NCBI GenBank assembly: GCA_964608845.1
Contig: CAZSPP010000008.1
Location: 1-56,487, forward strand
Reading direction: 5' to 3'
DNA from: an uncultured archaeon
GTDB lineage: Archaea > Aenigmatarchaeota > Aenigmatarchaeia > GW2011-AR5 > JAHLMP01
DNA: 56,487 nt
Shown here piece by piece: positions 41,216 to 56,487 of this stretch. The position numbers and the translations under genes were made by a program. The notes below the pieces were generated by a model. The model ran no database searches. It saw only the letters and a list, made by a program, of their open reading frames with translations, and had not been told where the DNA came from. The stretch's first letter is position 1. Each line of letters starts with the position of its first letter.

Positions 41216-41910
41216 TTTGTTTGATTTGTTTGGCTTTCGAAAACTTCTTTCAACTCTATAAATATTTCACCGAAAATTTCTTGTTGGAAGCAGATTATTT
41301 TATTATTCATAACCAAATGAAGAAGAGGTATGAAATTATAAACTATGTTTTTTCTATTCCATTCTCCTACAAGGCTAGAAAAGTTTTTTATTTTTTCATT
41401 TTTTATTCTTTCATATATTTTTTCAATTCTACTTTCTATGTCTTCATATTCTCCAATAAGGTTTTCGACATTTCTTCTAAGTCTAAGTTTCTTCAACTTT
41501 TTCTTTTCCTCGAATTCTATAACCTTTTGTAATGCATTTATAAGCTCTGTTAAAGTAACCTTTCTTTTAGGGGTTCTTATTATAGGAAGATCCACTAAAG
41601 GAACGTTTATATCTATATTAGGTTTTAAAGTTTCTTCTTTCGGCTCATTTATCTTCAAAACTTCACATTTCATTCTTAAAAGAATAGCCGCTATCAATAT
41701 AAATCTCGCCGGAATTCTAAAATCAAACTTTTTTAAATTTTTTAGATAATCTAAGAATGCATCAACAAGTCTAACAATATCTATATCCGACGGGTTTATA
41801 CCTTCTTCCTCTATTATATTTGTTATAACCTCCTCCCAATCGCTCGCAACAACTATTGTTTTTATTAGTTTACTTTCATCAACTTCCATTTTTTCTTGAA
41901 TATTAATCAC
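41212..41910 (-). CDS. scpA: segregation and condensation protein A (kleisin ScpA)
   Basis: DIDIVRLVDAFLDYL...ARFILIAAILLRMK, and it overlaps the smc 3' end. Confidence 0.8.
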   Translation of the reverse strand: MINIQEKMEVDESKLIKTIVVASDWEEVITNIIEEEGINPSDIDIVRLVDAFLDYLKNLKKFDFRIPARFILIAAILLRMKCEVLKINEPKEETLKPNIDINVPLVDLPIIRTPKRKVTLTELINALQKVIEFEEKKKLKKLRLRRNVENLIGEYEDIESRIEKIYERIKNEKIKNFSSLVGEWNRKNIVYNFIPLLHLVMNNKIICFQQEIFGEIFIELKEVFESQTNQTN

Positions 41911-44278
41911 CTTTTGGCATTTTTATAGAAAATACTTTTGAAACGCCATCTTCCATAGATACTCCAAAAACATGATCAGCTTCTTGTATTGTTAAATCAT
42001 TGTGTGTTATTACTATAAGTTGAGTTTTTTCAGAATATTTTTTTAAGAATTCTACTGCCTTTTTTGTATTAACTTTATCTAATGCTGCATCGATTTCATC
42101 TAATATATAAAATGGACATGCATAGTATTGTTGAATTGCAAAAAGAAATGCTATTGCTGTCATTGATTTTTCACCACCCGACATAGCATCTATATTTATA
42201 GGTGCTTTTGTGGTTGTTGAAGCTTCTATAATTAATCCAGAATTTATATCATTTTCATCTTCCAATCTAAGCCTCCCCTCACCTCCCATAAGATCTTTAT
42301 ATATGTTTGCAAAGTTTTCAGAAACTATCTTAAGTGTTTCCATAAATTTTTCCTTCTTTTTACTTTCTATCTCCTGTATAGCTTTTAGTATCGAATCTTT
42401 TTCTTCGACAAGCTTTTCCAACCTTTTTTTAAGTTCTTCATATTCTACTCTTATTATTTCGAATTCTTCTGCTGCACGCATGTTCACTAATCCCAAAGAA
42501 TTTAATTCATTAATGTACTGAGAAAGCAAGGATTTTAGTTTATTGACTTCATAATCATAATAAGATTCTGTTTTAAAGTTTTCTATTTCTTTTTCTATGT
42601 TTTCAAACTCAGCTTCTTTCTTTGCAAGGTTTACTGTCAGCTTATTTAATTCGCTTGTTAATTGAAGTTTCTCGTTTAATAGGATATTTAACTCTTTTCT
42701 AATTTTGTCAACATCAATTTCGAATCTTGATCTCTCTTCTTCAAGCTTTTTTAGATTTTCTTCTTCTTTCTTTTGTTCTTCCCTTAGGTTTTTTAATTCT
42801 TCTTCCAACTTTTCTATTTCTTTTAATAATCTTTCATTTTCTTCCAATATTCTTTTTTCAAACTCTGCTCTCTTATTATATCCTCCAACAATAGCTCCAA
42901 AGGGTTCTATCAAATCTCCATCTAATGTAACGGCTTTTATCCCAGGCTCAACCCTTTTTTCAATATTTTCTATTATTACAGTATCTCCTAATACATATTC
43001 TATAACATCTCTATATTTCGGATCAAACTTCACTAAATTTATTGCCTTATCTATTATTTCTCCAGAAATCTTTCTTTCTTTTTTATCAATTTTTATTTTA
43101 TCTAATGGTAAAAAGCGAGCTCTTCCTATTTTATTCTCTTTTAAAAATTTTATACACTCTATTGCAACATTTTCATTTTCAACAACGATATCATTTAAAT
43201 GATTTCCTATAGCAACTTTAATAGCTACTGAATATTTTTTTGGTATTTCTATTAATTGTTGTAAAGTTCCTACAACTCCATTTATATTAGAAATGTGTCT
43301 TAATATGTTTTCATATTTTTCTTTTGATAATAAAGCTTCGTTCAAATCTATTTTATCTTTTTTTCTTATTATCTCCATATTTATTTGATCGATTTTTCTA
43401 AGAAGCTCTATATTTCTAGCTTTTTGTATTATTATTTCATTTAACTTTTTTGTTTCCTCGCTACTTTTTTCTAACTCGTTTTGCTTTTCAGAATATTTTT
43501 TATCCAATTCTTCCAATCTCTTTTTCAGGTTTTCTATTTTTTCATTAATTTTGTTTATGTCTTTTTGAAGATTTTCTTTCGACTTTAGTGCAATAGAATA
43601 TCTTATCTTTTTTATTTCTTCATTTAGAAATATGCTTTTTTCTGCATACTCTTTTTCCTTTTTTAGCCTTTCTAACAATTTTTCCTTTTCCATTAGAACT
43701 ATTTTCATTTCATTTATATGCTTTTCAACTTTTTCCAATTCTAATTCAGATTTTCTTTTCTTTTCATCAAACTCAGCTATTCCTGAAATTTGATCTATAA
43801 GTTCTCTTCTTTCTTTAGGAGAGGTTTCGATTACTTTTGTTATATCACCTTGCATTATTATATTATGACCATAAGGAGAGATGTTTAGATTAGAAAGCAA
43901 ATCTAACATCTTATTTCTTGTAACAACTTTACCGTTTATTCTTATAATACTCAGACCCTTTTCATTTATCTTTCTAGTTATTTTTATTTCATCATCGTAA
44001 GGAAGCTTTCTATCTTTATTATCTAAATATATAGATACACTACAATACTTTGCGGGTTTTCTTTTCTTACTACCACGAAATATAAGTTCTGAAAGCCTCT
44101 CGGCTCTTATAACTTTTGCTGAAGATATTCCTAAAGCGAACATTATTGCGTCACATATGTTAGATTTTCCACTTCCGTTTGGCCCGCAAATTACTGTAAA
44201 TCCAGAAGGAAAAGGTATAGCTACTTTATCTGCAAAAGATTTAAATCCATGAATTACTATTCTGTTTATTCTTGTCAT
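41903..44278 (-). CDS. smc: SMC chromosome segregation ATPase, short-armed (791 aa)
   Basis: Walker A GPNGSGKSN, a hinge (GVVGTLQQLIEI...RARFLPLD...VTLDGDLIEPFGAIVGG), the signature MSGGEK, and Walker B FYILDEIDAALD. Confidence 0.88.
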   Translation of the reverse strand: MTRINRIVIHGFKSFADKVAIPFPSGFTVICGPNGSGKSNICDAIMFALGISSAKVIRAERLSELIFRGSKKRKPAKYCSVSIYLDNKDRKLPYDDEIKITRKINEKGLSIIRINGKVVTRNKMLDLLSNLNISPYGHNIIMQGDITKVIETSPKERRELIDQISGIAEFDEKKRKSELELEKVEKHINEMKIVLMEKEKLLERLKKEKEYAEKSIFLNEEIKKIRYSIALKSKENLQKDINKINEKIENLKKRLEELDKKYSEKQNELEKSSEETKKLNEIIIQKARNIELLRKIDQINMEIIRKKDKIDLNEALLSKEKYENILRHISNINGVVGTLQQLIEIPKKYSVAIKVAIGNHLNDIVVENENVAIECIKFLKENKIGRARFLPLDKIKIDKKERKISGEIIDKAINLVKFDPKYRDVIEYVLGDTVIIENIEKRVEPGIKAVTLDGDLIEPFGAIVGGYNKRAEFEKRILEENERLLKEIEKLEEELKNLREEQKKEEENLKKLEEERSRFEIDVDKIRKELNILLNEKLQLTSELNKLTVNLAKKEAEFENIEKEIENFKTESYYDYEVNKLKSLLSQYINELNSLGLVNMRAAEEFEIIRVEYEELKKRLEKLVEEKDSILKAIQEIESKKKEKFMETLKIVSENFANIYKDLMGGEGRLRLEDENDINSGLIIEASTTTKAPINIDAMSGGEKSMTAIAFLFAIQQYYACPFYILDEIDAALDKVNTKKAVEFLKKYSEKTQLIVITHNDLTIQEADHVFGVSMEDGVSKVFSIKMPKGD

Positions 44279-44334
44279 AACAAATATAGTTATATTTTGA
44301 TAATTAAATAACTTTTTCCTTTTTCTGAAAAATT

Positions 44335-45720
44335 TTATGATTTTTGTATAGAGTTATGAATATTTTCGTCATATTCTGGAACAAACCTTTTTATCATACT
44401 ACAGAATTTTCTTTCTGGACAAAAACCTAGCTTACATTTAGGTCCGAGAAGCTCATAAGGAATACCAAAGTTTACAAGCTCTGAAATAATTTTGTTCATT
44501 GTTGCAACTATTTCGCTATCAGCTGTTATACAACTTCTAACCCCTATAAATCCAAATGGGTCAAAGATATGATAACCATCCATATAAATCTTATATTTTA
44601 TTTTTAATCCTAGAGGTATTATGTATATAGCTTCTGTTTTAGGTACCCCATTTTCAACCATTTTTTCATACAACTGGATAGCAGAAGAGTAAGCTTCTTC
44701 TAATTTATTTTCAATTTCATTTGGTAAGTATGATGGTATAAAAAAGTTTTCTTTCATGTTTTCATTAATTGCTCTATCAATTGCATTATATATATTTTCT
44801 ACATTTTGTTTCATTGTTCTATGTCTTTTAAGATCTGTGAAGCAGGCCAAAGAAATTTTATCTGTGAAAGAAAATAGAGTTAAATCCTTTATTTTTGTTA
44901 CAAATCTTTTCCATTCCTCTGCTTTCTCTTTTGTTGTTTTTGAGTTATTAATTTTTTCATAATGTTGTTTAACTAATTCTTCAAAATCTTTTTCAGAATA
45001 CAATTTTTTAAGGTTATAGTCTTCATCTAAAAGCTCGCCATTAAAAATATTTGGTTTTGAAAAAGAGTTGTTGTAAATTAATTTTTCAGCAGCGTTTGTT
45101 GTCAAAGGGGCTTTTTCTAAAGCAAAACTTTTTATCCTTTTTCCAATTTCAATTATTTCTTTTGGATATATATCGATTTTTTCGCAATCTTTTATTATTC
45201 CTATAATTGTTTGTAATGGGAAGCTAAAAAATCCAAAAGTTTTTATAGAAAGCGGTAAAAGTTTTCTTGCTGTATCTATTCCATATTTTTCAAAAAGTAT
45301 TTGATATGTATCTAACAATTTTTTACAAGTATCCTGATATTCTTTCTCAAATCCACATTCGATAATAGATTCTGGAATAGTTATAAAATCTTCTGTAAAC
45401 TTAATTCTTCTTGTACTACATATTATATAAGAACCAAAAGGAAAGTTTGAAAAATAAAAATCAGAAATTTTACTACCTTCTAACCAAAAATAAAAGTTTA
45501 TTGAGGTTGTTAAAGATGCATGTCCTCTCTTAGTAGATTCTCTGTGAAAAACCTCTAGAGATTTTTTATCCAAGCTTGACAAAAGATCTGAAAAATTTTC
45601 GATTTTTGCAGTTAAAAAGCCGCTTGCCGCAATAACACTATCTGGGCCAAAGTCAAGATATTTAGGAGAATAATCTAACAGTTTAACATCCAAGCATTCT
45701 AAAATTTTTTTCATAGTCAA
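44335..45720 (-). CDS. thyX: tandem-duplicated ThyX-like protein (FAD-dependent thymidylate synthase fold, twice)
   Basis: The N-half has KRGHASL...FYFWLEG...STRRIKF...ARKLLPL. The C-half has FSFTDKISLACFTDLKRHRT...FFIPS...EAIYIIPLG...RSCITADSEI. Both halves parallel the T. maritima ThyX motif order. Confidence 0.6.
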   Translation of the reverse strand: MTMKKILECLDVKLLDYSPKYLDFGPDSVIAASGFLTAKIENFSDLLSSLDKKSLEVFHRESTKRGHASLTTSINFYFWLEGSKISDFYFSNFPFGSYIICSTRRIKFTEDFITIPESIIECGFEKEYQDTCKKLLDTYQILFEKYGIDTARKLLPLSIKTFGFFSFPLQTIIGIIKDCEKIDIYPKEIIEIGKRIKSFALEKAPLTTNAAEKLIYNNSFSKPNIFNGELLDEDYNLKKLYSEKDFEELVKQHYEKINNSKTTKEKAEEWKRFVTKIKDLTLFSFTDKISLACFTDLKRHRTMKQNVENIYNAIDRAINENMKENFFIPSYLPNEIENKLEEAYSSAIQLYEKMVENGVPKTEAIYIIPLGLKIKYKIYMDGYHIFDPFGFIGVRSCITADSEIVATMNKIISELVNFGIPYELLGPKCKLGFCPERKFCSMIKRFVPEYDENIHNSIQKS

Positions 45721-45889
45721 ATACCTAAAAATTTTATTTATCTTATTAAATTTTACATTTAAAAATTGCCTATTGTTTTTAATAAGCTTTTTGGTTTTTT
45801 ACTAAATATATTTGAAAATAATGAAATTGAAAATATGTTTTTGTAAAACTAATTAAAAAAATTTAAAAGTAAGAGACAAAAAAACTTTT

Positions 45890-46660
45890 ATGAAAATTTT
45901 CGCAAAAAGTAATATTTCTAAATTTAAAAAGCTTGATAAAAAGATTTTGATTTTAAAAACCTTCTTTGCTATATTATTTGCTTCATTGTTCATAGTTTTA
46001 ACAAAAGTTAAAGTTACTCCTATTATAGGAACAGAATCAAAATTTTCAGCTTCTGTAATGTTTGGTCCAATAATTTCCAAATTTATTGGAATAGGTTTTG
46101 GTTCAGGCTCTATTATAGGAGCTCACATATTCGGAATAATTTTCGGAATATATAAGATAAAATCTTTTTTAAGTTTTTTCACATTTGCTCCAATAATATT
46201 TGCAGGAATATATTTTGCAAAAATCTTTAAGAGTGAAAAGAAAATAATTCTTTTTCCTTTAATATCAATAATTGCATTCATTTTACATCCTATTGGAAGA
46301 GAGGTTTGGTTTTACTCTCTTTTCTGGATAATACCTATAACAATTTCTTTAGGAGAAAGAATAATTTCAAATTATATAAAAAACAATATAATAAAAACTT
46401 ATCTTTATTCTATTGGAACAGCCTTTGTTGATCATAGTGTCGGTTCTATATTATTTCTTTATTTCCTTAATATTCCAAAAGAGGCTTGGATAGCAGCAAT
46501 ACCTTTAACTATAGTAGAAAGACTAATAATTGCAGCTGGTATAACATTTAGTTATTTTTCAGTATTAGTTGCGATAAAGGTTTTAAAAGAAATTTCTGTT
46601 GGAGTTGGTATTGGTGAAAAGGTTTTAGAAAAAGAGAAACCTATTGTTGAAAAAGGTTAA
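45890..46660 (+). CDS. polytopic membrane protein, unknown (possible vitamin or folate uptake component)
   Basis: 256 aa with about seven hydrophobic segments. No motif recognised; the suggestion comes from context only. Confidence 0.4.
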   Translation: MKIFAKSNISKFKKLDKKILILKTFFAILFASLFIVLTKVKVTPIIGTESKFSASVMFGPIISKFIGIGFGSGSIIGAHIFGIIFGIYKIKSFLSFFTFAPIIFAGIYFAKIFKSEKKIILFPLISIIAFILHPIGREVWFYSLFWIIPITISLGERIISNYIKNNIIKTYLYSIGTAFVDHSVGSILFLYFLNIPKEAWIAAIPLTIVERLIIAAGITFSYFSVLVAIKVLKEISVGVGIGEKVLEKEKPIVEKG

Positions 46661-46664
46661 AGAA

Positions 46665-47927
46665 ATGAGAGAAGAAATAAAGAAGATTAAAGAAATTGTG
46701 GAAAATGAAAATAGATGGAGAAGGGAAGAATGTATAAATCTAATAGCTTCTGAAAGCGTTTTATCCCCTTTAGCTGAAAAATTTTACATTTCAGATTTTG
46801 AAGGAAGGTATAATGAGCATGATGAAGTAGAACATTATTGTGGAACAAAATATTCTACAGAAATAGAAAATTTTTGCAACAAAATATTTATGGAAAGATT
46901 TTCTACAAAATATGTAGATACAAGACTTATATCTGGAGCTATTGCGAATCTTGCTATATATACAGCTTTCACAAATCCTGGGGATTTAATAGCATCTTTA
47001 GGAATACAGAACGGTGCTCATGTATCAGCGACAAAATGGGGTATAGCTGGAGTGAGAGGTTTAAAGCATATTGATATGGCTTTTGATTATAAAAGAATGA
47101 ATATAGATGTTGATGAAACAGTAAAAATATTAAAAGAGAAAAATCCAAAGCTTGTTGTTTTAGGCGGATCAATGATATTATTTCCTCACCCAATAAAAGA
47201 ATTAAAAGAGAGTTTAGAAGAAGTAATTTTTGTTTATGATGCTGCACATGTCTTTGGTTTGATTTATGCAGGAGAATTTCAAAATCCTTTAAAAGAAGGG
47301 GCAGAAGTTTTAACCTCATCAACCCATAAAACATTTCAAGGTCCTCAAGGCGGAATTATAATATGTAATAACTTTATTTCTGAAGATTTTTGGAAAAAGA
47401 TTCAAAAAGCAATATTTCCAGGATTAATATCAAATCATCATATTCATAGATTACCTTCTCTTGCAATAACAGCAATAGAGATGAATGTATTTGGAAAAGA
47501 ATATGCGAAACAAACAATAAAAAATGCGAAATGTCTGGCTGAGAGTTTATATAATTTTGGGTTTGATGTTTTATGTCCAGACTTAGGATTTACAGAAACC
47601 CATCAAGTTATTATAAATGTGAAAAGATTTGGTGGCGGAGAAAAGGTTGCGAAAAATTTAGAAGAAGCAAACATAATATGCAACAAAATGTCTTTGCCAG
47701 AAGATTCTCCTCACGATGCAACAAAAAATCCATCTGGAATAAGAATCGGTGTGCAGGAAATGACAAGATTTGGTATGAAAGAAGAAGAGATGAGAGAAAT
47801 AGCGAGATTTTTTAAAAAGGTTTTGATTGATAACATATCTACAAAAGAATTAAGAGAAGATGTAATAAATTTTAGAAAAGGTTTTACAAAAATACATTAT
47901 TGCTTCGAATTAGAAGAGTTTTGTTAA
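46665..47927 (+). CDS. glyA: serine hydroxymethyltransferase
   Basis: INLIASESVLSP and the PLP-lysine motif SSTHKTFQGPQGGII. Confidence 0.88.
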   Translation: MREEIKKIKEIVENENRWRREECINLIASESVLSPLAEKFYISDFEGRYNEHDEVEHYCGTKYSTEIENFCNKIFMERFSTKYVDTRLISGAIANLAIYTAFTNPGDLIASLGIQNGAHVSATKWGIAGVRGLKHIDMAFDYKRMNIDVDETVKILKEKNPKLVVLGGSMILFPHPIKELKESLEEVIFVYDAAHVFGLIYAGEFQNPLKEGAEVLTSSTHKTFQGPQGGIIICNNFISEDFWKKIQKAIFPGLISNHHIHRLPSLAITAIEMNVFGKEYAKQTIKNAKCLAESLYNFGFDVLCPDLGFTETHQVIINVKRFGGGEKVAKNLEEANIICNKMSLPEDSPHDATKNPSGIRIGVQEMTRFGMKEEEMREIARFFKKVLIDNISTKELREDVINFRKGFTKIHYCFELEEFC

Positions 47928-47930
47928 ATA

Positions 47931-49397
47931 TTATTCTACTTTTATTTTTATCATTATTTTGTTTGTGGTAGAATTTAATCCAAGATTTTCTATAACAACA
48001 TTGTGAGTTCCTTTGGAAATTCTTTCAAAAGAAACCAAATCAATTTTTGTATAAGGTATTATCATTCTTATAGTTTTTTCCTCTCTTGAAATTTTTATAT
48101 TATCGAAATATGTTGTTTTTGGCGAAGAAAGAACGAGAAATATATTGGCTAAATTTTCTATTTTTATTGTCTTGCTTTCATTTAGTTTTTTAATCCCCAA
48201 AATATAATCTTGCAATATTTCATCATCGCTTAATGCTGTGTTATATATCCTTATTTCATCAATAACCCCATTAAAATACCCGGGCTTCCCTAACAAGAGA
48301 TTTGCTGTTGTATTTGAATAATATGTTGGTATTAACTTTTCCCCTATAAATATCCCATTTTTATAACTTCTCCCTTTTCCTAAACTAGTATTAACACTAA
48401 CTGCTATATAGTTCCAATCATTTTCTGTATATGATATTTGAGGTGAAAACTCTCCACTATATCCATCAGAAGACCCATAATAAAATACTAATGTTTTTGT
48501 TGAATTTGAGAGTTGAATACTCCATCCGTTTGATAAATATCCTCCATATTCTAAAATTCTCGGATTTTCGTTTGTTTGAATGTATGGCTTTATCCAAAAC
48601 GATATTGTAAAACTTCCTAATCCCAAATCAAAGATTGTATTATTACCAAAATCTACATAATCATCATTTCCATCGAATTCCAAAGCATTTGAAAACTTTC
48701 CATCTACTCTTTTCGGTAAGGTATTGCCATCTGAATTTTCATGATCATCATCATATAAAGTTCCATTATTATAATTAAAAGAAAAATCGTATGCTATTTC
48801 ACCAGAATTTTCATCAAAGGTCCAATATCCGATCAAATTGTTAGGATTTTTTGGCAAAATAAATATCTCTCCTATCACATTTTCTTCTCCATAAATTTCT
48901 CCACTTAAGTAAAAGTTTTCAAGCGTTCCAATACTTTTATATGCTAATCCATTAACTCCTTTATATCTTCCACTACTTATGCTCCAATTTCCGCTTAAGA
49001 TATTCCATGTTGAGCTTGCGTTGCTATTTTCTACATAATTATTAAAATATTCTGAGAAATTCAACCCAGTAATAACATCTATATCACCTTTTTTACCTCC
49101 TAATTTCAGTTGCTCAGATGGCTTAAACTCAAAATATAAATATTCTTTATTTTCATCAATATAATAAATTCCATCTGTTATTGAGATCGATATAGTTCTT
49201 TTTGATCCTTTTGACTCAGATGCAACTTCTTTTATTAATGAATTTAACAATTGCAAATTTTGCGTAGCTTCTGAAATTATTGCAGAGTCTTTAGCTTTTT
49301 CTATTGTAGGGGTTAAAGCGTTCATTACAATAATTATTGCTGTAACACTAAAGGCTATAACCATAATCATTGAGACTATTGGACTTAATCCTTTCAT
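47931..49397 (-). CDS. type IV pilin-like (class III signal) protein with a LamG/concanavalin-like domain
   Basis: N-terminus MKG-LSPIVSMIMVIAFSVTAIIIV. LamG signature GYWTFDE...GKFSNALEFDGNDDYVDFG...FTISFWIKP...IDEIRIYN. Confidence 0.7.
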   Translation of the reverse strand: MKGLSPIVSMIMVIAFSVTAIIIVMNALTPTIEKAKDSAIISEATQNLQLLNSLIKEVASESKGSKRTISISITDGIYYIDENKEYLYFEFKPSEQLKLGGKKGDIDVITGLNFSEYFNNYVENSNASSTWNILSGNWSISSGRYKGVNGLAYKSIGTLENFYLSGEIYGEENVIGEIFILPKNPNNLIGYWTFDENSGEIAYDFSFNYNNGTLYDDDHENSDGNTLPKRVDGKFSNALEFDGNDDYVDFGNNTIFDLGLGSFTISFWIKPYIQTNENPRILEYGGYLSNGWSIQLSNSTKTLVFYYGSSDGYSGEFSPQISYTENDWNYIAVSVNTSLGKGRSYKNGIFIGEKLIPTYYSNTTANLLLGKPGYFNGVIDEIRIYNTALSDDEILQDYILGIKKLNESKTIKIENLANIFLVLSSPKTTYFDNIKISREEKTIRMIIPYTKIDLVSFERISKGTHNVVIENLGLNSTTNKIMIKIKVE

Positions 49398-49402
49398 TTT
49401 AA

Positions 49403-50017
49403 TCAACTTATATTCAACTCTTTCATTTCTTTCGATCTTCTTATTCCTAAGTTAGATGTAAAAATTAAATCGAAAAAATATTTATATGAAGGGTTGTATG
49501 TATTAAAGGTTATGTTTTCTTCATTTTCTTCATATTTAACATTTAAATTATAATTGTCGTTTGCATTAACTGAAAAGCTCACATTATAAATTGTATTCTT
49601 TTGAGCTATAAAGCTTTCTATTTGTTCAGGAGAAGAATTTAGAACAAGTGTAACATTTATTTCATTATCAAAGAAATTAATTATAGTAACATTTGCTATA
49701 TAACTTCCAGAATAATTTATGCTGAGATAAAAGGCATTAAAATCAAAACCTTTTGAAGATAGATATTTTTCTAAAAATTGGAAAAAATTGAGAACATTTT
49801 CATTTATTTCGTTATAAAAAGAATATATGGGGACTTTTGCAATTTCTTCTTTCAAATTTTCAAAAATTTTATTTTCCAAAGAATTTTCTATGTATCTTTT
49901 CTGAATATCTGGAGATACAAAATTTATGTTAGAGAGAAGAATTACTAAACTTGTTATTATTATTGCAGCAGCTATCAAAAACATTTGCCCTTTGCAATTC
50001 ATTTCACAGTACCCCAT
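49403..50017 (-). CDS. type IV pilin-like protein
   Basis: N-terminus ...MNCKG-QMFLIAAAIIITSLVILL. An alternative ATG at 50002 forms an ATGA overlap with the upstream stop. Confidence 0.6.
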   Translation of the reverse strand: MGYCEMNCKGQMFLIAAAIIITSLVILLSNINFVSPDIQKRYIENSLENKIFENLKEEIAKVPIYSFYNEINENVLNFFQFLEKYLSSKGFDFNAFYLSINYSGSYIANVTIINFFDNEINVTLVLNSSPEQIESFIAQKNTIYNVSFSVNANDNYNLNVKYEENEENITFNTYNPSYKYFFDLIFTSNLGIRRSKEMKELNIS

Positions 50018-50439
50018 ATATAAATTCTTATCTCTCTTGGTGAATAACTTCCAACATCACCTGAAATTATATAGGAAATGGAAGCAATATTTTTTTCAAG
50101 TTCATCAGATTTAAAATCTTCAGTAATGTTTGTTGTTTCATTAAATAGTACAATCTTGCAATTTATTTTATAACATGAAGATATTGCTTCTTTTATTTTT
50201 TCTGTGTTGTTTTCTAAAACCAATTTTCTAAGATTACCCATCTTATCCAAAGTGCTTATTTCATTAAAAATCTGTAATTTATAATTAGCTATAGAATATT
50301 CTGAAACAGTTAACTTTTTAGATAAAAGAAAAGATATTATGCTTATCAATAAAATAATAGCGATAGCAGCTTCTATAATCTTTGTAAAACCTTTTTTCGT
50401 TTTTTTAGATTTTAATTCATTTGATTTTAAGTCAAACAT
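49999..50439 (-). CDS. type IV pilin-like protein
   Basis: MFDLKSNELKSKKTKKG-FTKIIEAAIAIILLISIISFLL, a G/FT..IE-like prepilin motif. Confidence 0.6.
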   Translation of the reverse strand: MFDLKSNELKSKKTKKGFTKIIEAAIAIILLISIISFLLSKKLTVSEYSIANYKLQIFNEISTLDKMGNLRKLVLENNTEKIKEAISSCYKINCKIVLFNETTNITEDFKSDELEKNIASISYIISGDVGSYSPREIRIYIWGTVK

Positions 50440-50461
50440 AAAACAAAAGATATTCAACACC

Positions 50462-51634
50462 TCATTTATATATTTCTATTCTAAATTTGTAACCTTCCTC
50501 TATTAATCCCTTTACAAATTCATATGAAAAATTTTTCATTTGAAACATTTTAGAGAATGAGATTATTTTTATTTCTTCTTTTGGATATATTTTTATGTTT
50601 TGGAATGAAATATTTCTAGAGAATATATAATCTTCATCTTTAACTTCTTTCCAAAATCTAATTTCATCCATGGAACCATTAAAATATTCGTTCTCAAAAA
50701 AACCTATTTTGCATGAATTAGCGTTTATTCCATCGTTTGTAGAAATAACAACATAATTCCACTCATTTAGATTAATAGTTGTGTTGATAATACCGTTTAC
50801 ATAAATTGTAGGTGAAGAAATATTTGAGGCAACTATATTACTATCTTGTAATAATATTCCTGCAGAAGAATTTAGTTGAAGAATCTTCTGATTGGTATTA
50901 TTAGTTTTGATCCAGAATTCAATTGTTTTTATGTTTTCTCCAACATCTCCACAATCAACATAATCATTAACTCCATCGAAATATAACGCATTAGAAAATT
51001 TTCCTACTATCCAGGTAGGGCAATCTTCATTATAACAATTTACTGTTCCATTTTTTAATATTCCTGTTTTTTCATTTCCAGAATAATCTATAGCAATGCT
51101 TTCTGACTCATCAAATTTGTAATAAAGAGATAGGTTAGATAAATAATTTTTTGGTATAACATCTCTATCATTTGAAAAGTATATATATAATTTTTTGTTA
51201 TAATTTGGTGAAAGATTTACAAACATTGTTATTAAGCTAAAATTCAAATATTGCTCAGAACATAAATTACTATAAGAAATTTTATTTGCAATCTCTGTAA
51301 AATTTTCGTCATAGACTCTTATAGTGGAGTTCCAGGCTTCTTTGTTACAAAGACTATCAAAAGTTATATTAATTGAAATGGGCTCGTTTTTTAAATCATA
51401 TCCAGTAATTTCAATTATAATTGGAATTCTCTTTATAGGTTTTAACAACATAATATTATCCTCAGAATCTTCTTCGTTATAACTTGAAAATATTTTGTTA
51501 AATATGGTTATTGCCTTATCTCTAAACTCTGTAGCACTTACCTGTAGAGAAGAGAAATAGTAAGTTATGTAAAGTAAAGCAAACCCTATCATAAAAATAA
51601 ATATCGCAATACCTATAACAAAGTCTATCTCCAT
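50462..51634 (-). CDS. N-terminally anchored LamG-domain protein
   Basis: Hydrophobic N-terminus MEIDFVIGIAIFIFMIGFALLY. LamG signature YYKFDE...GKFSNALYFDGVNDYVDCG...IEFWIKT...MDEIRFW. Confidence 0.65.
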   Translation of the reverse strand: MEIDFVIGIAIFIFMIGFALLYITYYFSSLQVSATEFRDKAITIFNKIFSSYNEEDSEDNIMLLKPIKRIPIIIEITGYDLKNEPISINITFDSLCNKEAWNSTIRVYDENFTEIANKISYSNLCSEQYLNFSLITMFVNLSPNYNKKLYIYFSNDRDVIPKNYLSNLSLYYKFDESESIAIDYSGNEKTGILKNGTVNCYNEDCPTWIVGKFSNALYFDGVNDYVDCGDVGENIKTIEFWIKTNNTNQKILQLNSSAGILLQDSNIVASNISSPTIYVNGIINTTINLNEWNYVVISTNDGINANSCKIGFFENEYFNGSMDEIRFWKEVKDEDYIFSRNISFQNIKIYPKEEIKIISFSKMFQMKNFSYEFVKGLIEEGYKFRIEIYK

Positions 51635-51669
51635 AATTAAGAATTTGTTTTATTTTTATTTATTTTTTA

Positions 51670-54015
51670 TTAAGCTTTTTTGACATAAAAAATTGTAATG
51701 TTTCTCTTTCTTCTTCTAAAAGTGATAATTATTGCAAAAGCGAGAATTAATATAATGAGTCCAATAAGTATTATAATTGAATTTCCAGACACAAATTCTG
51801 ATACAAAAGAGTAAATTTCTTTTATAATGTTTTTCTTTTCTTTTTTTTCTGTTTGGATTGTTGTTTGCAAGCTCGTTTGTTTTAAAGTTGTAGTTTCTGT
51901 TTTTTCTTCTTTACATATTCCGCAATCTTTTTCGCATGTTTCACAATTTTCATTTTCTTCACAAATTCCATTTCCACAAACATTTTTTATAATACATTTC
52001 GGAATACCTGAATTACAATCTATAATTTCATTTTCTTTGCATGTTGGTGGAGAACAATCTTCTTTACATACACAATAATTCTCTTCATTTTCACATATTT
52101 TATTTCCACAAATTAATTTTCCTATATAAAAGTAGCCAACATCTTTAATTGTTTTTGTGTTGTTATTGATATCACTAGAAGTTATATCTATCCAATAAGA
52201 GCCATTAGAAGCAATATATATTTCTCCATGCCAATTTGATCCTTTCCTTAAATCTAAGGTATAATTTTTTTCACCTTTTATTAAAAGTTGAGCAAAAATT
52301 ACATCACTTCCTTCATCTTTTAAAACAGCAGTAAAATTAAAAACTCTTGAAAAAGAGGAATATGTGGGATAGACATAAAGTGAAATTAGTTCTGGAGGAT
52401 TATTATCTACTCTTATCTTAACACTTCTATTGACAACATTTCCTGCTAAATCTTCTCCGACAAAAAATATTTCATTTTCCCCATCATGTAATATTGTGGT
52501 ATCAAAAGTTCCTGTACAAGAGAACCTTCTTCCTTGAAGAATAGAAATGCAATCCATTTCAATATTTTTATCCAAAACCTTTAGGAAAAAGCTATTTTCT
52601 TTTAAGCCCCACTCATCCATATAATATACTACAGCAGAGTGATCTCCTTTCAAATAAATTTGGGAATAATCTGCTGTTGTTAAAATTGTTGGAGGAGTAT
52701 TATCTATTATAATAGATTTTTCATCGCTAACAGAATAATTTAAAGAATTTTTAACAATAACCTTAATTATATATGCTCCATCGTTTATGTTTGTTGTATT
52801 TAATAAGTAACTACAATAAGAAAAATCATTGTAGCAATTCATTTTATAATCCTTTTCCATAAACTTCAGAATAACATCTTCTATTATATCCTTTCTTCCA
52901 CTCAACGTAGCATTTATTGTTACAATACCTTTAACATAGTTCGGAGAAATAATTTGTACAAAAGGCCTTTGATTATTTATTTTGATATTTAAGGGGGTTT
53001 TTATGGTATTGTTTGCCTTATCAAAAACTGAAAAATAAATTTCATAATTGCCGTCTGAAAATATTGTAGTGTTTAAGATAAATGAACATAGATATGTATC
53101 TTCAGAAATATTTTTACATTCCATTCTATATTTGTTATTATTTATTTCCATTTCAGAATAATCTAAACCAGAATATCTATCTTTTATTCTTAATGTTATG
53201 TTAACCGATCCTCTTATTTCTTCACCTTCACTTAATGAAATATTATTAATTTCAGGAATTTCATTATCAATAAAAGCAACTCCTAAAAATGTTGTGTTTT
53301 TATTTCCTAAAACATCGCTCGCATTTACATAAATTAATATAGATTCATTATTTTGGAATTCGTCAGTTCTTATTTTCATTTTCCATGTAGCATTTAGAGT
53401 TATGTTTGCGAGAAATGTTTCATTATCTTTTATATAATATGCTAATACAGAAGAATTGTCTAATCCGGAAAGCAAATCAATTATAGAAAGGTCTATGATT
53501 TTATTAGAAGAAATAAAAGAGCCATTAATAAAATTTAAAGCGTTAACAATAGGGGGTTGTCTATCTATTATTACAGCTAAAGGATTTGTTTCATTTCCTA
53601 GAAATGTTGTTTCATTTCTATCAGAAACCTCAAAATAATAATATTCTTTTGTACCAGATTCTGCTGCAACTATTTCAATCTCTTTGAAACAATTTGCTGT
53701 TGTAGAATTTATTAAAAAACATGACATATTATAAATACTTCTATTTCCTGGCCAAACATCCTGAGCACCAAAATGTAAAAGAGCTGAAAGATTTTCAAAA
53801 GAAGAAGAAAAATTCGAAACTATAAGTGAAACATTAACAGAAAAATTGTATGATCTACCTCCTGATATATAGGTTCCATTTGTTGGTAAATAAGAAACAA
53901 TTTGCAAACATTTTCCTTCTGAAATAAAGATCAAAATTAGGGTCAATACAAATATAATTTTCCAAAAATACCCTCTACTATTTTTGAGATTTTTAATTAT
54001 AGAAGCATTAACCAT
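51670..54015 (-). CDS. large surface protein: Ig-like repeats, two Cys-rich modules, Thr-rich stalk, C-terminal TM anchor
   Basis: N-terminal signal or anchor. Repeated units end in (I/V)D(N/R)xPP, and several contain M(E/D/N)C...C..(F/L)(N/D)TT...DG. CGNKICENEENYC and CGNGICEENENCETCEKDCG follow, then the TM IIILIGLIILILAFAIIITF and RRRKR. Confidence 0.65.
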   Translation of the reverse strand: MVNASIIKNLKNSRGYFWKIIFVLTLILIFISEGKCLQIVSYLPTNGTYISGGRSYNFSVNVSLIVSNFSSSFENLSALLHFGAQDVWPGNRSIYNMSCFLINSTTANCFKEIEIVAAESGTKEYYYFEVSDRNETTFLGNETNPLAVIIDRQPPIVNALNFINGSFISSNKIIDLSIIDLLSGLDNSSVLAYYIKDNETFLANITLNATWKMKIRTDEFQNNESILIYVNASDVLGNKNTTFLGVAFIDNEIPEINNISLSEGEEIRGSVNITLRIKDRYSGLDYSEMEINNNKYRMECKNISEDTYLCSFILNTTIFSDGNYEIYFSVFDKANNTIKTPLNIKINNQRPFVQIISPNYVKGIVTINATLSGRKDIIEDVILKFMEKDYKMNCYNDFSYCSYLLNTTNINDGAYIIKVIVKNSLNYSVSDEKSIIIDNTPPTILTTADYSQIYLKGDHSAVVYYMDEWGLKENSFFLKVLDKNIEMDCISILQGRRFSCTGTFDTTILHDGENEIFFVGEDLAGNVVNRSVKIRVDNNPPELISLYVYPTYSSFSRVFNFTAVLKDEGSDVIFAQLLIKGEKNYTLDLRKGSNWHGEIYIASNGSYWIDITSSDINNNTKTIKDVGYFYIGKLICGNKICENEENYCVCKEDCSPPTCKENEIIDCNSGIPKCIIKNVCGNGICEENENCETCEKDCGICKEEKTETTTLKQTSLQTTIQTEKKEKKNIIKEIYSFVSEFVSGNSIIILIGLIILILAFAIIITFRRRKRNITIFYVKKA

Positions 54016-54059
54016 ATAAAAACATATTAAACAAAGAACAATAAAAATGTTACTATAAT

Positions 54060-54713
54060 TTAAAGTAAAGGTATTTCATTTACATTACGCTCTTCATCGA
54101 CTCCAAACATTCTATACCATTCATCGTCTTCAATCTTTACTCTAATAAAAACACATAACTTATTTCCACATTGGCCTATTCCAAATATTTCTGACTCTAA
54201 AACATTTTTTCCTTGATTATTAAGATAATTTAAAAGCACATCAAGTGCTTCACTTTCTGTTATATTCATTGGTCTTACTTCACAAGCATTTTTTGTTTTA
54301 TTGCATATCTCATAATCAAAAGGACAACCGCAATCTATACAGCAATTTTCATAAGATTCAAATATTTCACATACATTATTTCCACATATTGGTTTTACAC
54401 AAGTTTGTTTTTCTTCTGAGCAGTATTCACCTTCATTACATTTGCAATCCGGAGCACAATTGAAACAATTTTCTCCAATTTCACATATTCTGTTTCCGCA
54501 TAAAGCTTTACTTATTGTTTGATTTGTTTTTGTTTGTGTTGGCTTAGAGAAAATGAAAATTAAAGAAATAACGAGAATTATTATCCCTATGGCCAAAAAA
54601 ATTTTTTTATTATCTTTCTTTTCAAACCCTTCAAATTCAATTCTTTTGTATTCATCTTCTGGGCTATATTCATTTGGATAATATTGATTTTTCAGTCCAA
54701 AGAAAATCTTCAT
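54060..54713 (-). CDS. membrane-anchored Cys-rich protein with a PepSY-like C-terminal domain (paralog A)
   Basis: A TM, then two CGN..CE...EN..C..DC modules, then ITESEALDVLLNYL...MFGVDEERNVNEI. Confidence 0.6.
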   Translation of the reverse strand: MKIFFGLKNQYYPNEYSPEDEYKRIEFEGFEKKDNKKIFLAIGIIILVISLIFIFSKPTQTKTNQTISKALCGNRICEIGENCFNCAPDCKCNEGEYCSEEKQTCVKPICGNNVCEIFESYENCCIDCGCPFDYEICNKTKNACEVRPMNITESEALDVLLNYLNNQGKNVLESEIFGIGQCGNKLCVFIRVKIEDDEWYRMFGVDEERNVNEIPLL

Positions 54714-54799
54714 ATTATTTAATAGAGTTTTAGAATATAAAACATTTTAGGAGTAAAATTTAGTGTGTCGACTCTTTAGTTAGTTAATATTTGCTGCGA

Positions 54800-55435
54800 T
54801 CATATTGGAATTCCAAGAAGACGAACATTACCGTCAGCTGTTACAACAAAATACAATGTATCACGCCAATCTTTTTGAGTATGAGGATAAACATATACAA
54901 TCTTCGCTGGTTTGCCTTCATGTATAGTGTCATTTCCAACTACAATCTCATAACCAGAAATACCTTTTTCTTTTAGATAGTCTTCAACTAATTTTTTCGC
55001 AAGATCATCTGAAACTCCAGAAGACGGAATCTCGCATTTATGAGTTATTTTATTACATATTTCACCGCTTATTCTACATCCACAATCGTTACAACAATTT
55101 TCTGAATTTTCACCCGGTTCACATTTGTTGTTTCCACATATAGCTAATACACATTTTCTAGTTTCTGGTGAACAATAGTATCCTTCTTCACATTTACAGT
55201 CGAATGGACACTCGTAGCAATTTTCTCCAATATCACATCTTCTATTTCCACATTCAGGCTTTTCAAGTTTTTCTTTCGGTATCAATACAAAAAGAGATGT
55301 GATTAGAATAAATAAAACAACCGCACCTATTAAAACATACAAAAACCGCTTGCTTCTTTTAGAGTACTCAAGATCGGAATAATCTGAGTATTGGTTTGTT
55401 ATTTTTTCACTAACTGTTTCTGTTAGTTCTCGCAT
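54800..55435 (-). CDS. membrane-anchored Cys-rich protein with a PepSY-like C-terminal domain (paralog B)
   Basis: Cys spacing is identical to paralog A across about 73 aa. The C-terminus is DDLAKKLVEDYLKEKGISGYEIV...YFVVTADGNVRLLG. Confidence 0.6.
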   Translation of the reverse strand: MRELTETVSEKITNQYSDYSDLEYSKRSKRFLYVLIGAVVLFILITSLFVLIPKEKLEKPECGNRRCDIGENCYECPFDCKCEEGYYCSPETRKCVLAICGNNKCEPGENSENCCNDCGCRISGEICNKITHKCEIPSSGVSDDLAKKLVEDYLKEKGISGYEIVVGNDTIHEGKPAKIVYVYPHTQKDWRDTLYFVVTADGNVRLLGIPI

Positions 55436-55438
55436 ATT

Positions 55439-56487
55439 TTACCACATTTTTTTAATTTTTATGGTAGGATCGCCATAAAGGAGTGTTTGATGTGCTACTT
55501 TAAATACACATGCATCTGAATAACTGTTAAAATATTCTATCTTTTTCTCTTTAAATATATCACCTATTCTTTTTCCTACTTGGAATCCCTTAGAGATTCT
55601 TGTATATAAATTTCCTGTAAAGATTTCACCGCCAAAACGACACTCATCCACACCCTCAGAAGCTAATCCACTTCTTGATATAACACCACCGAGTTGCATT
55701 TCGGTTCCTCCAATATATACAGCTCCTCCTGATTTTAAAAAGACCATAAGAATAGATTCCGATGTTCTTTCAATATTATGAATTCTTCCGCCATAGCATG
55801 GCATTACCAACCAAAAAGGATTCTTTGTAATTGAAACGCTATTAGGAGTAAGCCATGGATCTTGGCCATAGCCATTCTCAGGAGAGAATTGTTGCGTCTC
55901 TATTCCACTCAATGATCGACAATATGGGGGAAAAGTTCTGCCTTCATTGCCATGAAGAAGACCCATCCAAAAAGATTTTCCTCTTATTGCATCATTATTT
56001 CTCTCCTCCGGATGGTAACAATCCTTAATAGACTTGCAAGGTGGGTTTGTTATTATCTCAAATATGTTGTTTGGACATGTTCCATGAACAGCACAGGCAT
56101 AACATTCTCCAGAAGTCCAGTATAAAAGTCCATACCAAGAAGGGCGTTCAAACATAGATATCTGTATCCGGTCAGATATGTCTATTCCACCTTCTTTGTG
56201 TAATTTTATAGCAGAATCTAATGAGTTCAATATAACATCAATATCTCCTTTATTAGGATCTGGTATTCTTCCTACTGGTATGTCAGGTAAACCATTTTTA
56301 GGTGTCTCGTAATCACCATACGGATCGTCAGTAAAAAGGTTTTTATCGCAGATGTTATAAATAAATGCAATGTCAGGGCATCCTGAATTGTCAATCACTG
56401 GTTGCACAAACCTATCATATCCACCTAAAATTATCAAGTATTTTACTTCCAATTTTTTAATTAATTGATCTAAAACTCCATCAATAT
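55439..56487 (-). CDS. C25 (gingipain)-like caspase-fold peptidase domain protein, N-terminus outside the window
   Basis: The frame is open to the window edge. YLIILGGYDRFVQPV...DDPYGDY...PDIPVGRIPDP is the C25 pattern, with candidate catalytic dyad LLHGNEG (His) and VMPCYGG (Cys). Confidence 0.5.
   Translation of the reverse strand, partial: IDGVLDQLIKKLEVKYLIILGGYDRFVQPVIDNSGCPDIAFIYNICDKNLFTDDPYGDYETPKNGLPDIPVGRIPDPNKGDIDVILNSLDSAIKLHKEGGIDISDRIQISMFERPSWYGLLYWTSGECYACAVHGTCPNNIFEIITNPPCKSIKDCYHPEERNNDAIRGKSFWMGLLHGNEGRTFPPYCRSLSGIETQQFSPENGYGQDPWLTPNSVSITKNPFWLVMPCYGGRIHNIERTSESILMVFLKSGGAVYIGGTEMQLGGVISRSGLASEGVDECRFGGEIFTGNLYTRISKGFQVGKRIGDIFKEKKIEYFNSYSDACVFKVAHQTLLYGDPTIKIKKMW

Follow-up and report, generated by a model that had tools for sequence, protein, structure and literature searches.

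A conserved set of four pilin-like genes with lectin modules beside a swappable protease cassette in an Aenigmatarchaeota archaeon: putative minor pilins of an archaeal type IV pilus

The minor pilins and pseudopilins of bacteria, such as GspH-I-J-K and FimU-PilV-W-X with the PilY1 adhesin, are encoded as four tandem pilin-like subunits, with the gene of a large adhesin-type protein beside them; an inserted domain makes one of the subunits larger, and only some subunits have a conserved acidic residue in the helix. In archaea, PilB/C can serve pilin sets encoded in trans, and the euryarchaeal type IV pilus loci (clade 2) contain several pilins together with an S-layer-like protein (PMC4858521; PMC6491452). 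Pilin-like proteins that lack the class-III motif are encoded in the system 2 loci, as are large adhesin-like proteins (bioRxiv 10.64898/2026.04.22.720090). The minor pilins EpdA-D of Methanococcus maripaludis are needed for piliation, and the Epd locus includes adhesin-like and sugar-binding domains (PMC3875500; bioRxiv 10.64898/2026.04.22.720090). Modular pilins are known from Streptococcus sanguinis, where PilB carries a vWA module and PilC a ConA-like lectin (PMC8179133; PMC9934059).

The window analyzed here is a stretch of 56,487 nucleotides from a hot-spring DPANN archaeon, in which eight ORFs follow one another on the minus strand (Table 1). All eight are real genes, and the ORF check agreed with the initial annotation regarding the coordinates and overlaps of this single-strand cluster as well as the N-termini of G1 (MKG-LSPIV), G2 (CKG-QMFL) and G3 (KKG-FTKIIE) and the bare hydrophobic N-terminus of G4. 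The stop codon of G3 overlaps the start codon of G2 (ATGA at 49999-50002) and the stop codon of G2 overlaps the TTG start of G1 (TTGA at 49403-49406); the other gaps within G1-G8 are 1-86 nt, that from G8 to G7 being 3 nt. G8 has no upstream in-frame stop, so its reading frame continues past the window edge. When every ORF of the window was scanned for a class-III-like N-terminus, only G1, G2 and one spurious ORF of 72 aa were returned. N-glycosylation sequons (N-x-S/T) are 4 to 9 times as dense in G1-G5, at 2.0-4.2 per 100 aa, as in 35 other window proteins (0.48), and an AglB gene is also present within the window.

Table 1. Features of the gene cluster, with positions in the window.
Feature	Positions	Strand	Description
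G1	47931-49406	-	modular minor pilin, 491 aa; TTG start
Insertion in G1	48057-49058	-	ConA/LamG-type jelly-roll; residues ~117-450 (~330 residues), from alignment of long and short orthologs
G2	49403-50002	-	pilin-like, 199 aa from ATG at 50002; ORF spans 49403-50017
G3	49999-50460	-	small DUF7288-type pilin-like protein
G4	50462-51634	-	leaderless pilin-like protein, 390 aa
G5	51670-54015	-	membrane-anchored Ig-repeat surface protein, 781 aa
G6	54060-54713	-	type-II membrane protein, 217 aa
G7	54800-55435	-	G6 paralog
G8	55439 to beyond 56487	-	C25-like (clan CD) cysteine peptidase domain; C-terminal part

The order G4-G3-G2-G1 was identical in all of the 44 loci collected, which represent 27, 19 and 8 lineages at 90, 70 and 50% G3 identity, respectively, and neither the order nor the motifs change at identities as low as about 25-30%. 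In G1, G2 and G3, a [KR]-G motif of the prepilin type precedes the hydrophobic helix. Moreover, remote Pfam links lead from G4 to DUF7287, from G3 to DUF7288 and from G1 to DUF7289, the matches of the window proteins themselves falling below the Pfam gathering scores. The earlier proposal that the four proteins are pilin-like is supported, and the constant order shows that they are conserved together as a unit. The ATGA and TTGA overlaps give the genes an operon-like arrangement, and G4-G3-G2-G1 represent a conserved set of four pilin-like subunits that are probably co-translated; L006 and L013-15 have duplicates of G1. The initial annotation had also stated that no archaeal system of such composition is described, which proved too strong for the four-gene core because of its remote kinship to DUF7287, DUF7288 and DUF7289 and its match to the multi-pilin sets that computational work has described for archaeal type IV filament systems, where S-layer-like proteins, large adhesin-like proteins and pilin-like proteins devoid of a class-III motif also occur (PMC4858521; bioRxiv 10.64898/2026.04.22.720090).

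G1 combines a helix at its N-terminus with a DUF7289-like pilin core and carries a lectin module as an insertion. Its class-III signal is M-I-K-M-K-G followed by L-S-P-I-V, the pattern [KR][GAS][LIVMA][ST]x is present in 35 of 38 orthologs, and 9 of 12 family members matched DUF7289 (best E 1.1e-6). The AF2 model (pLDDT 80.7) places a helix of ~54 residues at positions 9-62, and the protein is all-beta thereafter. Alignment of long and short orthologs revealed that the lectin insertion is missing from the ~162-aa G1 proteins at distant loci. The module matched Laminin_G_3 in Pfam (E=2.3e-21), a PDB profile search led to 4qvs and 5ho0, and Foldseek aligned ~240 columns with AbnA domain 4 and with the HCN lectin domains of clostridial neurotoxins (E down to 2.8e-12). 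A further LamG domain was recognized at residues ~160-340 of G4, with a Pfam match (E 5e-5) under the Pfam cut-off and a 99.7% hhalign probability between the G4 family and the G1 LamG domain, in accordance with the earlier assignment of LamG domains to two of the four pilin-like proteins.

G4 starts with M-E-I-D-F, directly continued by a hydrophobic helix without leader, and has a conserved Asp at position 4-5; the direct helix start was found in 27 of 27 orthologs. The N-terminus is DUF7287-like; this family was matched by the window protein with E=0.0034 and by 6 of 17 orthologs (best E 3.4e-5). In G3, the motif is K-G followed by five residues and a Glu, and [KRQ][GA]x5E with the invariant Glu at +6 is present in all 41 orthologs. 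An exhaustive HMMER search with G3 yielded 428 cluster representatives, nearly all of 120-140 aa, and 10 of 34 proteins matched DUF7288 (best E 2e-6). The AF2 model of G3 comprises a helix at residues 13-40 followed by an alpha/beta domain, and no significant structural neighbor of the model was found in the PDB. The G2 motif is K-G followed by Q-M-F-L ([KR]GQ[MVLI][FY] in 41/41 orthologs), and no consistent Pfam family was obtained among 25 G2 orthologs.

In agreement with the initial annotation, no pilus ATPase, platform protein or prepilin peptidase was detected in the Pfam survey of 38 of the larger window ORFs between 1023 and 38354 or, for 38363-47927, among the Pfam labels of the syntenic counterpart in L002 by which that segment was judged. 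In the closest relatives examined (L002-L010, L045-L048), these machinery genes are likewise missing up to a distance of 10 kb from the cassette. In four distant loci (L020, L021, L026 and L030), the cassette is located directly downstream of a T2SSE (FlaI/PilB-type) ATPase gene, two T2SSF (PilC/TadC-type) genes and two PilA-like pilin genes, with one further class-III protein encoded before the cassette, and a PilB3_C domain is present on the ATPase of the distant relatives (E=3.5e-27 and 4.8e-9). Furthermore, a PilA-like pilin gene adjoins the LamG-bearing cassette in L006. The linkage in the distant relatives fits a minor-pilin module that is served in trans, and we read G4-G3-G2-G1 as the minor pilins of an archaeal type IV pilus with its machinery presumably encoded elsewhere. 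That G1-G4 belong to an adhesion pilus of the PilB/PilC/PilA type, accompanied by a swappable protease cassette, is the explanation that we favor and consider rather likely. Following this, we propose that a PibD-type peptidase encoded elsewhere would cut G1-G3 after the Gly and that the four helices would pack as a small complex, either built into a PilA-like filament or priming it, in what would be, by analogy, a parallel to bacterial minor-pilin complexes. Given the lectin jelly-roll inserted in a G1 loop and the LamG domain of G4, the complex would expose two lectin modules and serve as an adhesive, probably glycan-binding, part of the pilus. The cassette is a good candidate for an attachment device, which, as the initial annotation proposed, may sit at the pilus tip and may hold onto a host.

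It is unlikely that G1-G4 form a short membrane-anchored stub, similar to a bindosome or pseudopilus, which presents the lectin domains and never becomes a long pilus. Such a stub would agree with the lack of a major pilin and of machinery in the window and its closest relatives, two large lectin-bearing subunits would be bulky for a filament, and class-III signals are known from binding proteins (bioRxiv 10.64898/2026.04.22.720090), such as the sugar-binding proteins of the Sulfolobus bindosome. However, the locus that contains the cassette in distant relatives also encodes a PilB/PilC set together with two PilA-like pilins, the PilA-like gene of L006 adjoins the very version that bears LamG, and no ABC transporter is consistently linked to the cassette.

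In the adhesion pilus that we propose, G5 would be an S-layer-like or adhesin partner of the cassette. Its orthologs are encoded immediately upstream of G4 in L002, L006, L008, L010, L013-15, L019 and L036. The protein starts with a signal peptide, which is followed by about six Ig-like repeats, by two Cys-rich modules (636-702) and by a Thr/Lys-rich stalk, and it ends with a transmembrane segment (747-765) and a basic tail; the repeats were recognized by weak Big_7/Big_13 matches and by five evenly spaced domain boundaries of the form [IV][DN]Nx[PR]P, which together with the C-terminal anchor is in line with the multi-Ig-repeat, membrane-anchored protein described before. The density of sequons in G5, 33 in total, suggests heavy glycosylation.

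The genes further upstream vary between strains. Nucleotide similarity with L047 (99.74%) and L045 (96%) stops at 54721, 8 nt upstream of the G6 ATG, and the block that is constant between strains begins with G6. Strains that are 96-99.7% identical over G1-G6 encode another C25 peptidase or a metzincin-motif protein, with a partner gene that differs in each case, and G8 is only 37-43% identical to the C25 proteins of strains with 80-100% identical G1-G6. Upstream of 54721 lies a distinct, swappable cassette that varies between strains; G7 forms part of it. Three alternatives were observed, namely C25 type A (in the window), C25 type B and a metzincin-motif domain, the latter assigned in L045 by the single motif HEMGHSFGLGH; the proteases are secreted or membrane-bound, and the small Cys-rich membrane partner changes along with them. 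G7 was seen only with the C25 variant of the window: it is missing in L047, L002 and L045 and stands alongside G8 in L001. In G8, whose N-terminus lies off the window so that the C-terminal peptidase domain alone is seen, Peptidase_C25 was matched with E=1.2e-10 (41.6 bits, cut-off 23) over profile positions 246-373 only, and the catalytic His178 (55952-55954) and Cys230 (55796-55798) are invariant in three orthologs, as befits the C25-like peptidase running off the window that had been noticed earlier.

G6 has a transmembrane segment (38-56), two Cys-rich modules and a C-terminal alpha/beta domain of ~70 aa; module 1 matches CGNxxC..E..CxxCxxDC, and module 2 was read by eye. Within the window, this Cys-rich module is common only to G5, G6 and G7, and it occurs also in the C25 proteins of relatives. 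The initial annotation had described G6 and G7 as tandem Cys-rich, PepSY-like paralogs belonging to a dedicated protease-plus-regulator arm. Their paralogy was evident (41% identity, E=2.7e-34), but the resemblance to PepSY found no support, no Pfam match at E<=1 and no PDB profile match having been obtained. The protease does co-vary with an adjacent small Cys-rich partner, which lends some weight to an arm of this kind, but the arm is not a fixed part of the apparatus: it was present in the closest clade only, and it is swapped among strains that are nearly identical. It is therefore improbable, more so than the stub, that G8, G7 and G6 are a dedicated unit for maturation or regulation of pilus proteins with the Cys-rich proteins as PepSY-type inhibitors. 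The adjacency of the three genes on one strand with 3 nt between G8 and G7, the invariable change of the partner gene with the protease and the Cys-rich module shared with G5 would agree with such a unit; nevertheless, most cassette-bearing loci lack the arm, and its replacement in strains of 96-99.7% identity is unlike a housekeeping maturase. Moreover, a TATA-like box, TTTATATT, conserved in four strains ~30 nt upstream of G6, suggests separate transcription. The protease would act extracellularly on a variable target, e.g., the surface of a host or neighbor, rather than mature the pilins.

Finally, a chance neighborhood of unrelated surface proteins with ordinary Sec signal anchors, as might be supposed from the missing cleavage motif of G4, the missing known family of G2 and the missing structural match of G3, is hardly credible in view of order and motifs invariant in 44 loci whose identity clustering argues against a redundant-contig artifact, the linkage of relatives to pilus machinery and the remote links of G1, G3 and G4 to DUF7289, DUF7288 and DUF7287.

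As compared to archaeal TFF loci, such as those of the PilB3/PilA adhesion pili of Haloferax volcanii and the pilB1/pilB4 operons, the locus shares several distinct pilin-like genes per operon, one pilin-like protein without class-III motif (G4), an all-beta minor pilin of variable length that is prone to duplication (G1), a large S-layer-like or adhesin-like protein with C-terminal anchor (G5), and an ATPase and platform often provided in trans, with PilB3_C on the ATPase of relatives (PMC4858521; PMC6491452; bioRxiv 10.64898/2026.04.22.720090). By contrast, the window proteins are under the Pfam cut-offs, lectin modules are present on G1 and G4, and the cassette is unlinked from machinery and linked to a swappable protease cassette; the platform of the relatives is split in two genes, which is treated as a system 1 trait (bioRxiv 10.64898/2026.04.22.720090). 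No individual study of the haloarchaeal pilin-set proteins was found in the archaeal TFF literature examined. The LamG-like domain of G1 is similar to TafC of the haloarchaeal Tat-fimbriae (NCBIfam E=6.6e-8), but with 32 bits against a cut-off of 410 and a class-III instead of a twin-arginine signal G1 is no member of that family.

The Epd minor pilins of M. maripaludis likewise comprise several class-III minor pilins encoded together; no sequence relationship to G1-G4 was found, and the Epd locus has its own peptidase and machinery. The traits of the bacterial minor pilins and pseudopilins are shared by the cluster by analogy only, with no detectable similarity in sequence or fold, and the Glu is at +6 in G3 as compared to +5 in bacteria. 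In S. sanguinis PilC, a lectin module is also grafted onto a pilin module, and there the pilus itself binds glycans; the system is bacterial, its pilin part is without homology and the module is appended, whereas that of G1 is inserted in a loop. G8 resembles Gingipain/PorU (Peptidase C25, clan CD) in its profile match and in a catalytic His-Gly and Cys that follow hydrophobic strands, yet it is distant and lacks a T9SS context, and in relatives a Cys/Asp-rich scaffold is fused to the domain, whose place can be taken by a metzincin-motif domain. Taken together, the core would be a variant form of an archaeal pilus system whose kind is already known, to which this Aenigmatarchaeota lineage has added lectin modules and a swappable protease cassette.

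The gene order G4-G3-G2-G1, coding for four pilin-like proteins, was kept in 44 of 44 related loci with breaks only at contig ends, so that co-conservation of these genes, as implied by the module proposed in the initial annotation, was borne out. The loci were gathered by exact-protein look-ups, a genome scan and a metagenome scan queried with a four-sequence G3 alignment (A12), were then searched with local HMMs, and stand for 27 lineages at 90% G3 identity, 19 at 70% and 8 at 50%. The N-termini are conserved as well: the G1 motif [KR][GAS][LIVMA][ST]x, which is of the archaeal K-G / L-S-P-I type, was present in 35 of 38 orthologs, [KR]GQ[MVLI][FY] in G2 and [KRQ][GA]-x5-E in G3 in 41 of 41 orthologs each, and a direct helix start M-x(1-4)-[DS]-[FLM] in all 27 orthologs of G4. 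The Glu of the G3 motif is the sole invariant residue in an alignment of 34 sequences. In G1, G2 and G3 a short, positively charged leader ending in [KR]-[GAS] is directly followed by a hydrophobic helix, as is characteristic of class-III signals, and the pilin-like N-termini described earlier can be upheld for these three proteins, whereas G4 lacks the leader. Each of the four proteins has a single hydrophobic segment, which is N-terminal in every case. Moreover, G1-G5 contain 2.0-4.2 sequons per 100 aa as compared to 0.48 elsewhere in the window, a density that would fit glycosylated surface proteins.

The four genes belong to a cluster of eight consecutive ORFs (G1-G8) at 47931-56487, all on the minus strand, and both the coordinates and the ATGA overlap of this cluster were confirmed. 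Besides the two start/stop overlaps listed in the table, the intergenic gaps measure 1-86 nt, and G8 remains open to the window end, an in-frame stop being absent before 56487. The archaeal origin of the window is indicated by genes for S3Ae, eIF2-alpha, TFB, RLI and AglB together with a GC content of 29%. Scanning the window for Rfam families and tRNAs gave no matches. The near-identical contig L047 stems from a Great Boiling Spring enrichment at 77 °C, and a (hyper)thermophilic lifestyle is in accordance with this source and with the reverse gyrase gene of the 89%-identical relative L002.

Coordinates of the cluster, of its counterparts in related loci and of further features of the window
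Feature	Sequence	Positions	Strand	Remark
G1	window	47931-49406	-	TTG start
G8	window	55439->56487	-	cut by the window end
G2 stop/G1 start	window	49403-49406	-	TTGA shared
G3 stop/G2 start	window	49999-50002	-	ATGA shared
TTTATATT motif	window	54740-54750		lies about 30 nt before the G6 ATG
Block shared with L047	window	47421-54721		99.74% nucleotide identity
Block shared with L045	window	47926-54721		96% nucleotide identity
L047 protease cassette	L047	1-435		C25 type B, G7 absent
L045 protease cassette	L045	3024-5700		metzincin-motif domain and 199-aa partner
SHMT and 256-aa membrane protein genes	window	45890-47927		between G1 and thyX; not so in L045 and L046
Region compared with window 45890-47927	L045	1-1072		in L045, SHMT gene upstream of the cluster instead
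Reverse gyrase gene	L002	1-1165		near the cluster
554-aa G2 ortholog	L030	9284-10948		about 205 aa elsewhere
554-aa G2 ortholog	L031	3399-5063		about 205 aa elsewhere
Zinc-ribbon protein, 525 aa	window	10309-11886	+	odd pairing of signal-peptide-like N-terminus and terminal zinc ribbon
Neighbouring zinc-ribbon protein	window	11901-12365	+	zinc ribbon likewise terminal
Tyrosine recombinase, two adjoining ORFs	window	13844-14704; 14759-15160	-	N-terminal SAM-like and catalytic domains apart; possibly a split integrase or one with a frameshift
PriS-PriL fusion, 482 aa	window	20085-21533	+	DNA primase small- and large-subunit domains in one ORF
AglB/STT3 oligosaccharyltransferase	window	25482-26822	-	same window as sequon-rich G1-G5

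Word-based searches for G4 and G3 returned only close relatives, and the size of the G3 family became apparent with an exhaustive HMMER profile search, which yielded 428 cluster representatives at E<=1e-3, nearly all of 120-140 aa and starting with M-K-G. Relatives of G3 matched Pfam DUF7288 in 10 of 34 sampled cases (best E 2e-6), those of G1 matched DUF7289 in 9 of 12 (best E 1.1e-6) and those of G4 matched DUF7287 in 6 of 17 (best E 3.4e-5). The window proteins score below the gathering cut-off of 27 bits common to these families, namely 18.4 bits for G4 (DUF7287) and 12.9 bits for G1 (DUF7289), with no DUF7288 match for G3; judged by profile similarity, G4, G3 and G1 are remote relatives of DUF7287, DUF7288 and DUF7289 and not members by the curated threshold. 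No Pfam match was obtained for the window proteins G2, G3, G6 and G7, nor could G2 be assigned to a family via Pfam. The three DUF numbers are consecutive and run parallel to the gene order G4, G3, (G2), G1, which suggests that these families were derived from adjacent genes in a single operon. We infer a link between the three DUFs and neighbouring haloarchaeal pil genes; a tblastn search of plasmids with a halophile-like G3 relative for an annotated haloarchaeal locus gave no match. Within the G3 family, the 278-aa protein P0188 combines a DUF7288-like small pilin with a C-terminal Cys-rich module (CGDGNCNGAETCSTCPADC) of the same kind as in G5, G6 and G7, and other members carry inserted domains (P0072, P0111, P0165 and P0185). 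Two long orthologs were observed for G2, so that this protein, too, can gain a sizeable additional domain in certain lineages.

The lectin portion of G1 is an insertion into a smaller pilin-like protein. In most of the distant loci G1 comprises only about 162 aa, and since these short forms align to residues 1-125 and 451-491 of G1, residues 117-450 represent the inserted part. The AF2 model of G1 (pLDDT 80.7) has the shape of a pilin, i.e., an N-terminal helix of about 50 residues (54 residues, positions 9-62) followed by a mostly beta globular domain, here all-beta. The model of G3 displays a helix at residues 13-40 and a small alpha/beta domain, and had no significant PDB neighbour in Foldseek; a significant match to a PDB pilin was obtained neither for the G3 model nor, among the matches listed, for the G1 model. 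According to Foldseek and a PDB profile search, the G1 insert matches lectin jelly-rolls, namely the clostridial neurotoxin HCN domain, AbnA domain 4 and an S-layer-domain protein, and all 50 Foldseek matches listed for G1 are lectin jelly-rolls, from which the pilin core cannot be read. The presence of two LamG-type lectin proteins was corroborated: G1 matches Laminin_G_3 with E=2.3e-21 (77 bits as compared to a cut-off of 27.6), and G4, although under the cut-off (E=5e-5, 23.9 bits), aligns to the LamG domain of G1 with 99.7% probability in hhalign. The two proteins are alike only in the LamG region, and the middle domain of G4 differs among lineages. An identification of G1 as TafC of Tat-fimbriae was rejected, as the score of 32 bits, compared to 410 for the equivalog, was confined to the LamG region and the N-terminus MIKMKG|LSP has no RR motif.

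Upstream of the four pilin-like genes, G5 codes for a surface protein that begins with a signal peptide and continues with some six Ig-like repeats (weak Pfam matches to Big_7 and Big_13), a pair of Cys-rich modules, a stalk, a TM segment and a basic tail, and its orthologs precede G4 in many loci devoid of machinery genes, L009 being an exception. G6 and G7 are paralogs sharing 41% identity. The label PepSY-like, previously attached to them, has to be dropped at the sequence level: no Pfam match was found at E<=1, and a five-ortholog profile retrieved nothing relevant from the PDB. Within the window, the motif CGNxxC..E..CxxCxxDC is confined to G5, G6 and G7, while relatives have it in the C25 protein as well. 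For G8, the assignment as a C25-like peptidase holds, with a Peptidase_C25 match above the cut-off of 23 bits (E=1.2e-10, 41.6 bits) that is restricted to the last third of the profile, and with the catalytic residues His178 (LLHGNEG) and Cys230 (MPCYGG) invariant in three orthologs. Full-length C25 relatives consist of an N-terminal anchor, a Cys/Asp-rich region and a peptidase domain, with the His and Cys again invariant.

Strains differ in the genes preceding G6. In strains with 80-100% identical G1-G6, the C25 protein is only 37-43% identical to G8, and the similarity of both L047 and L045 to the window stops 8 nt before the G6 start. Upstream of this break the window carries C25 type A with G7, L047 carries C25 type B and L045 a metzincin-motif protein, hence three alternative protease-plus-partner cassettes precede one constant module. 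An exact-protein look-up located the same G8 and G7 on a 1.9-kb contig, while the other strains found carry other cassettes. In the L045 protease, an N-terminal scaffold 81% identical to that of the L002 C25 protein is joined to a domain in which HEMGHSFGLGH represents a zinc motif of the metzincin type, an assignment supported by motif-level PDB matches only; the gene that follows codes for an unrelated partner of 199 aa, which has a Cys module and is anchored at its C-terminus. The TTTATATT motif, placed just inside the conserved block and kept in the window, L047, L045 and L002, is a candidate archaeal TATA box and may serve as a promoter for the constant block G6-G1. The exchange of three cassettes argues against a housekeeping maturation role, and an extracellular enzyme under diversifying pressure fits better than a housekeeping maturase. 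The region around the cluster is rearrangement-prone, as seen from the lack of the SHMT and 256-aa membrane protein genes between G1 and thyX in L045 and L046, from the shifted SHMT gene of L045 and from the IS240-family transposase next to the L002 C25 gene. Such a cassette swap between near-identical strains is unexpected and, if real, would point to rapid diversification of an extracellular enzyme beside adhesion genes.

A direct connection to pilus machinery was found in four relatives (L020, L021, L026 and L030), where the pilin-like genes lie directly downstream of genes for a T2SSE ATPase with PilB3_C domain (JGI name FlaI), two T2SSF platform proteins, two small PilA-like pilins starting with MKGVSPL... 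and one further class-III protein. Pairs of PilA-like genes also occur in L023, L024, L031 and L044, and the 38%-identical relative L006, whose G1 copies contain LamG, has a PilA-like gene after the cassette. ATPase, platform and PilA-like genes are missing from the window as well as from its close relatives; when 38 of the larger ORFs located between 1023 and 38354 were surveyed with Pfam, neither a pilus ATPase nor a platform protein nor a prepilin peptidase was detected, and the content of 38363-47927 was taken from the Pfam labels of syntenic L002 genes.

With respect to function, the initial annotation had proposed a pilus-tip or pseudopilus adhesion module used for holding onto a host. 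Homology and conserved gene context support the putative pilin and adhesion-module assignment, whereas tip position, ligand and host attachment are features that we infer. DPANN archaea are thought to be dependent on physical contact with a host. It is conceivable, albeit rather unlikely, that the locus serves a thermophilic DPANN symbiont as a toolkit for host interaction, in which a pilus with two lectin modules in its minor-pilin complex would bind host S-layer glycans, a swappable exoprotease would breach or remodel the host surface and the small co-changing membrane partner would act as cognate inhibitor, immunity or docking protein. The protease, be it C25 type A, type B or metzincin-type, would sit, in relatives, on a shared Cys/Asp-rich scaffold, and the exchange at 54721 would then represent an arms-race or host-range switch like those of polymorphic effector-immunity loci. 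Irrespective of this toolkit, two of the four subunits have turned into lectin carriers in one thermophilic lineage, which makes them concrete candidates for host or substrate recognition.

The likeness to the bacterial minor-pilin priming/tip complex (GspHIJK, PilVWX type) is one of organisation and not of homology: Foldseek gave no significant match between the G3 model and subunits of this type, and the best bacterial Pfam match in the G3 family was ComGE, with E=0.15 in one of 34 sequences. No published description was found of the lectin insertions, of a location apart from the machinery genes or of the strain-variable protease cassette. Tad-type machinery without annotated pilins was found in the DPANN MAGs of one genomic study (PMC9563170), and the signatures KGQ[MV][FY] of G2, KG-x5-E of G3, leaderless M-x-x-D-F of G4 and [KR]G[LIV]SP of G1 offer a means of locating the pilin sets that are missing there. 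Archaeal PilB/PilC modules often serve pilin sets encoded elsewhere, and euryarchaeal T4P loci of clade 2 code for an S-layer-like protein and several pilins, one of them a minor pilin of variable length that is prone to duplication (PMC4858521; PMC6491452). Furthermore, the system 2 loci of a 2026 TFF preprint combine pilin-like proteins without class-III motif with large adhesin-like proteins (bioRxiv 10.64898/2026.04.22.720090). The published archaeal T4P analyses are in agreement with a set of several pilins served by machinery in trans, and the core of the cassette represents a variation on a kind of archaeal pilus component already known from computational descriptions.
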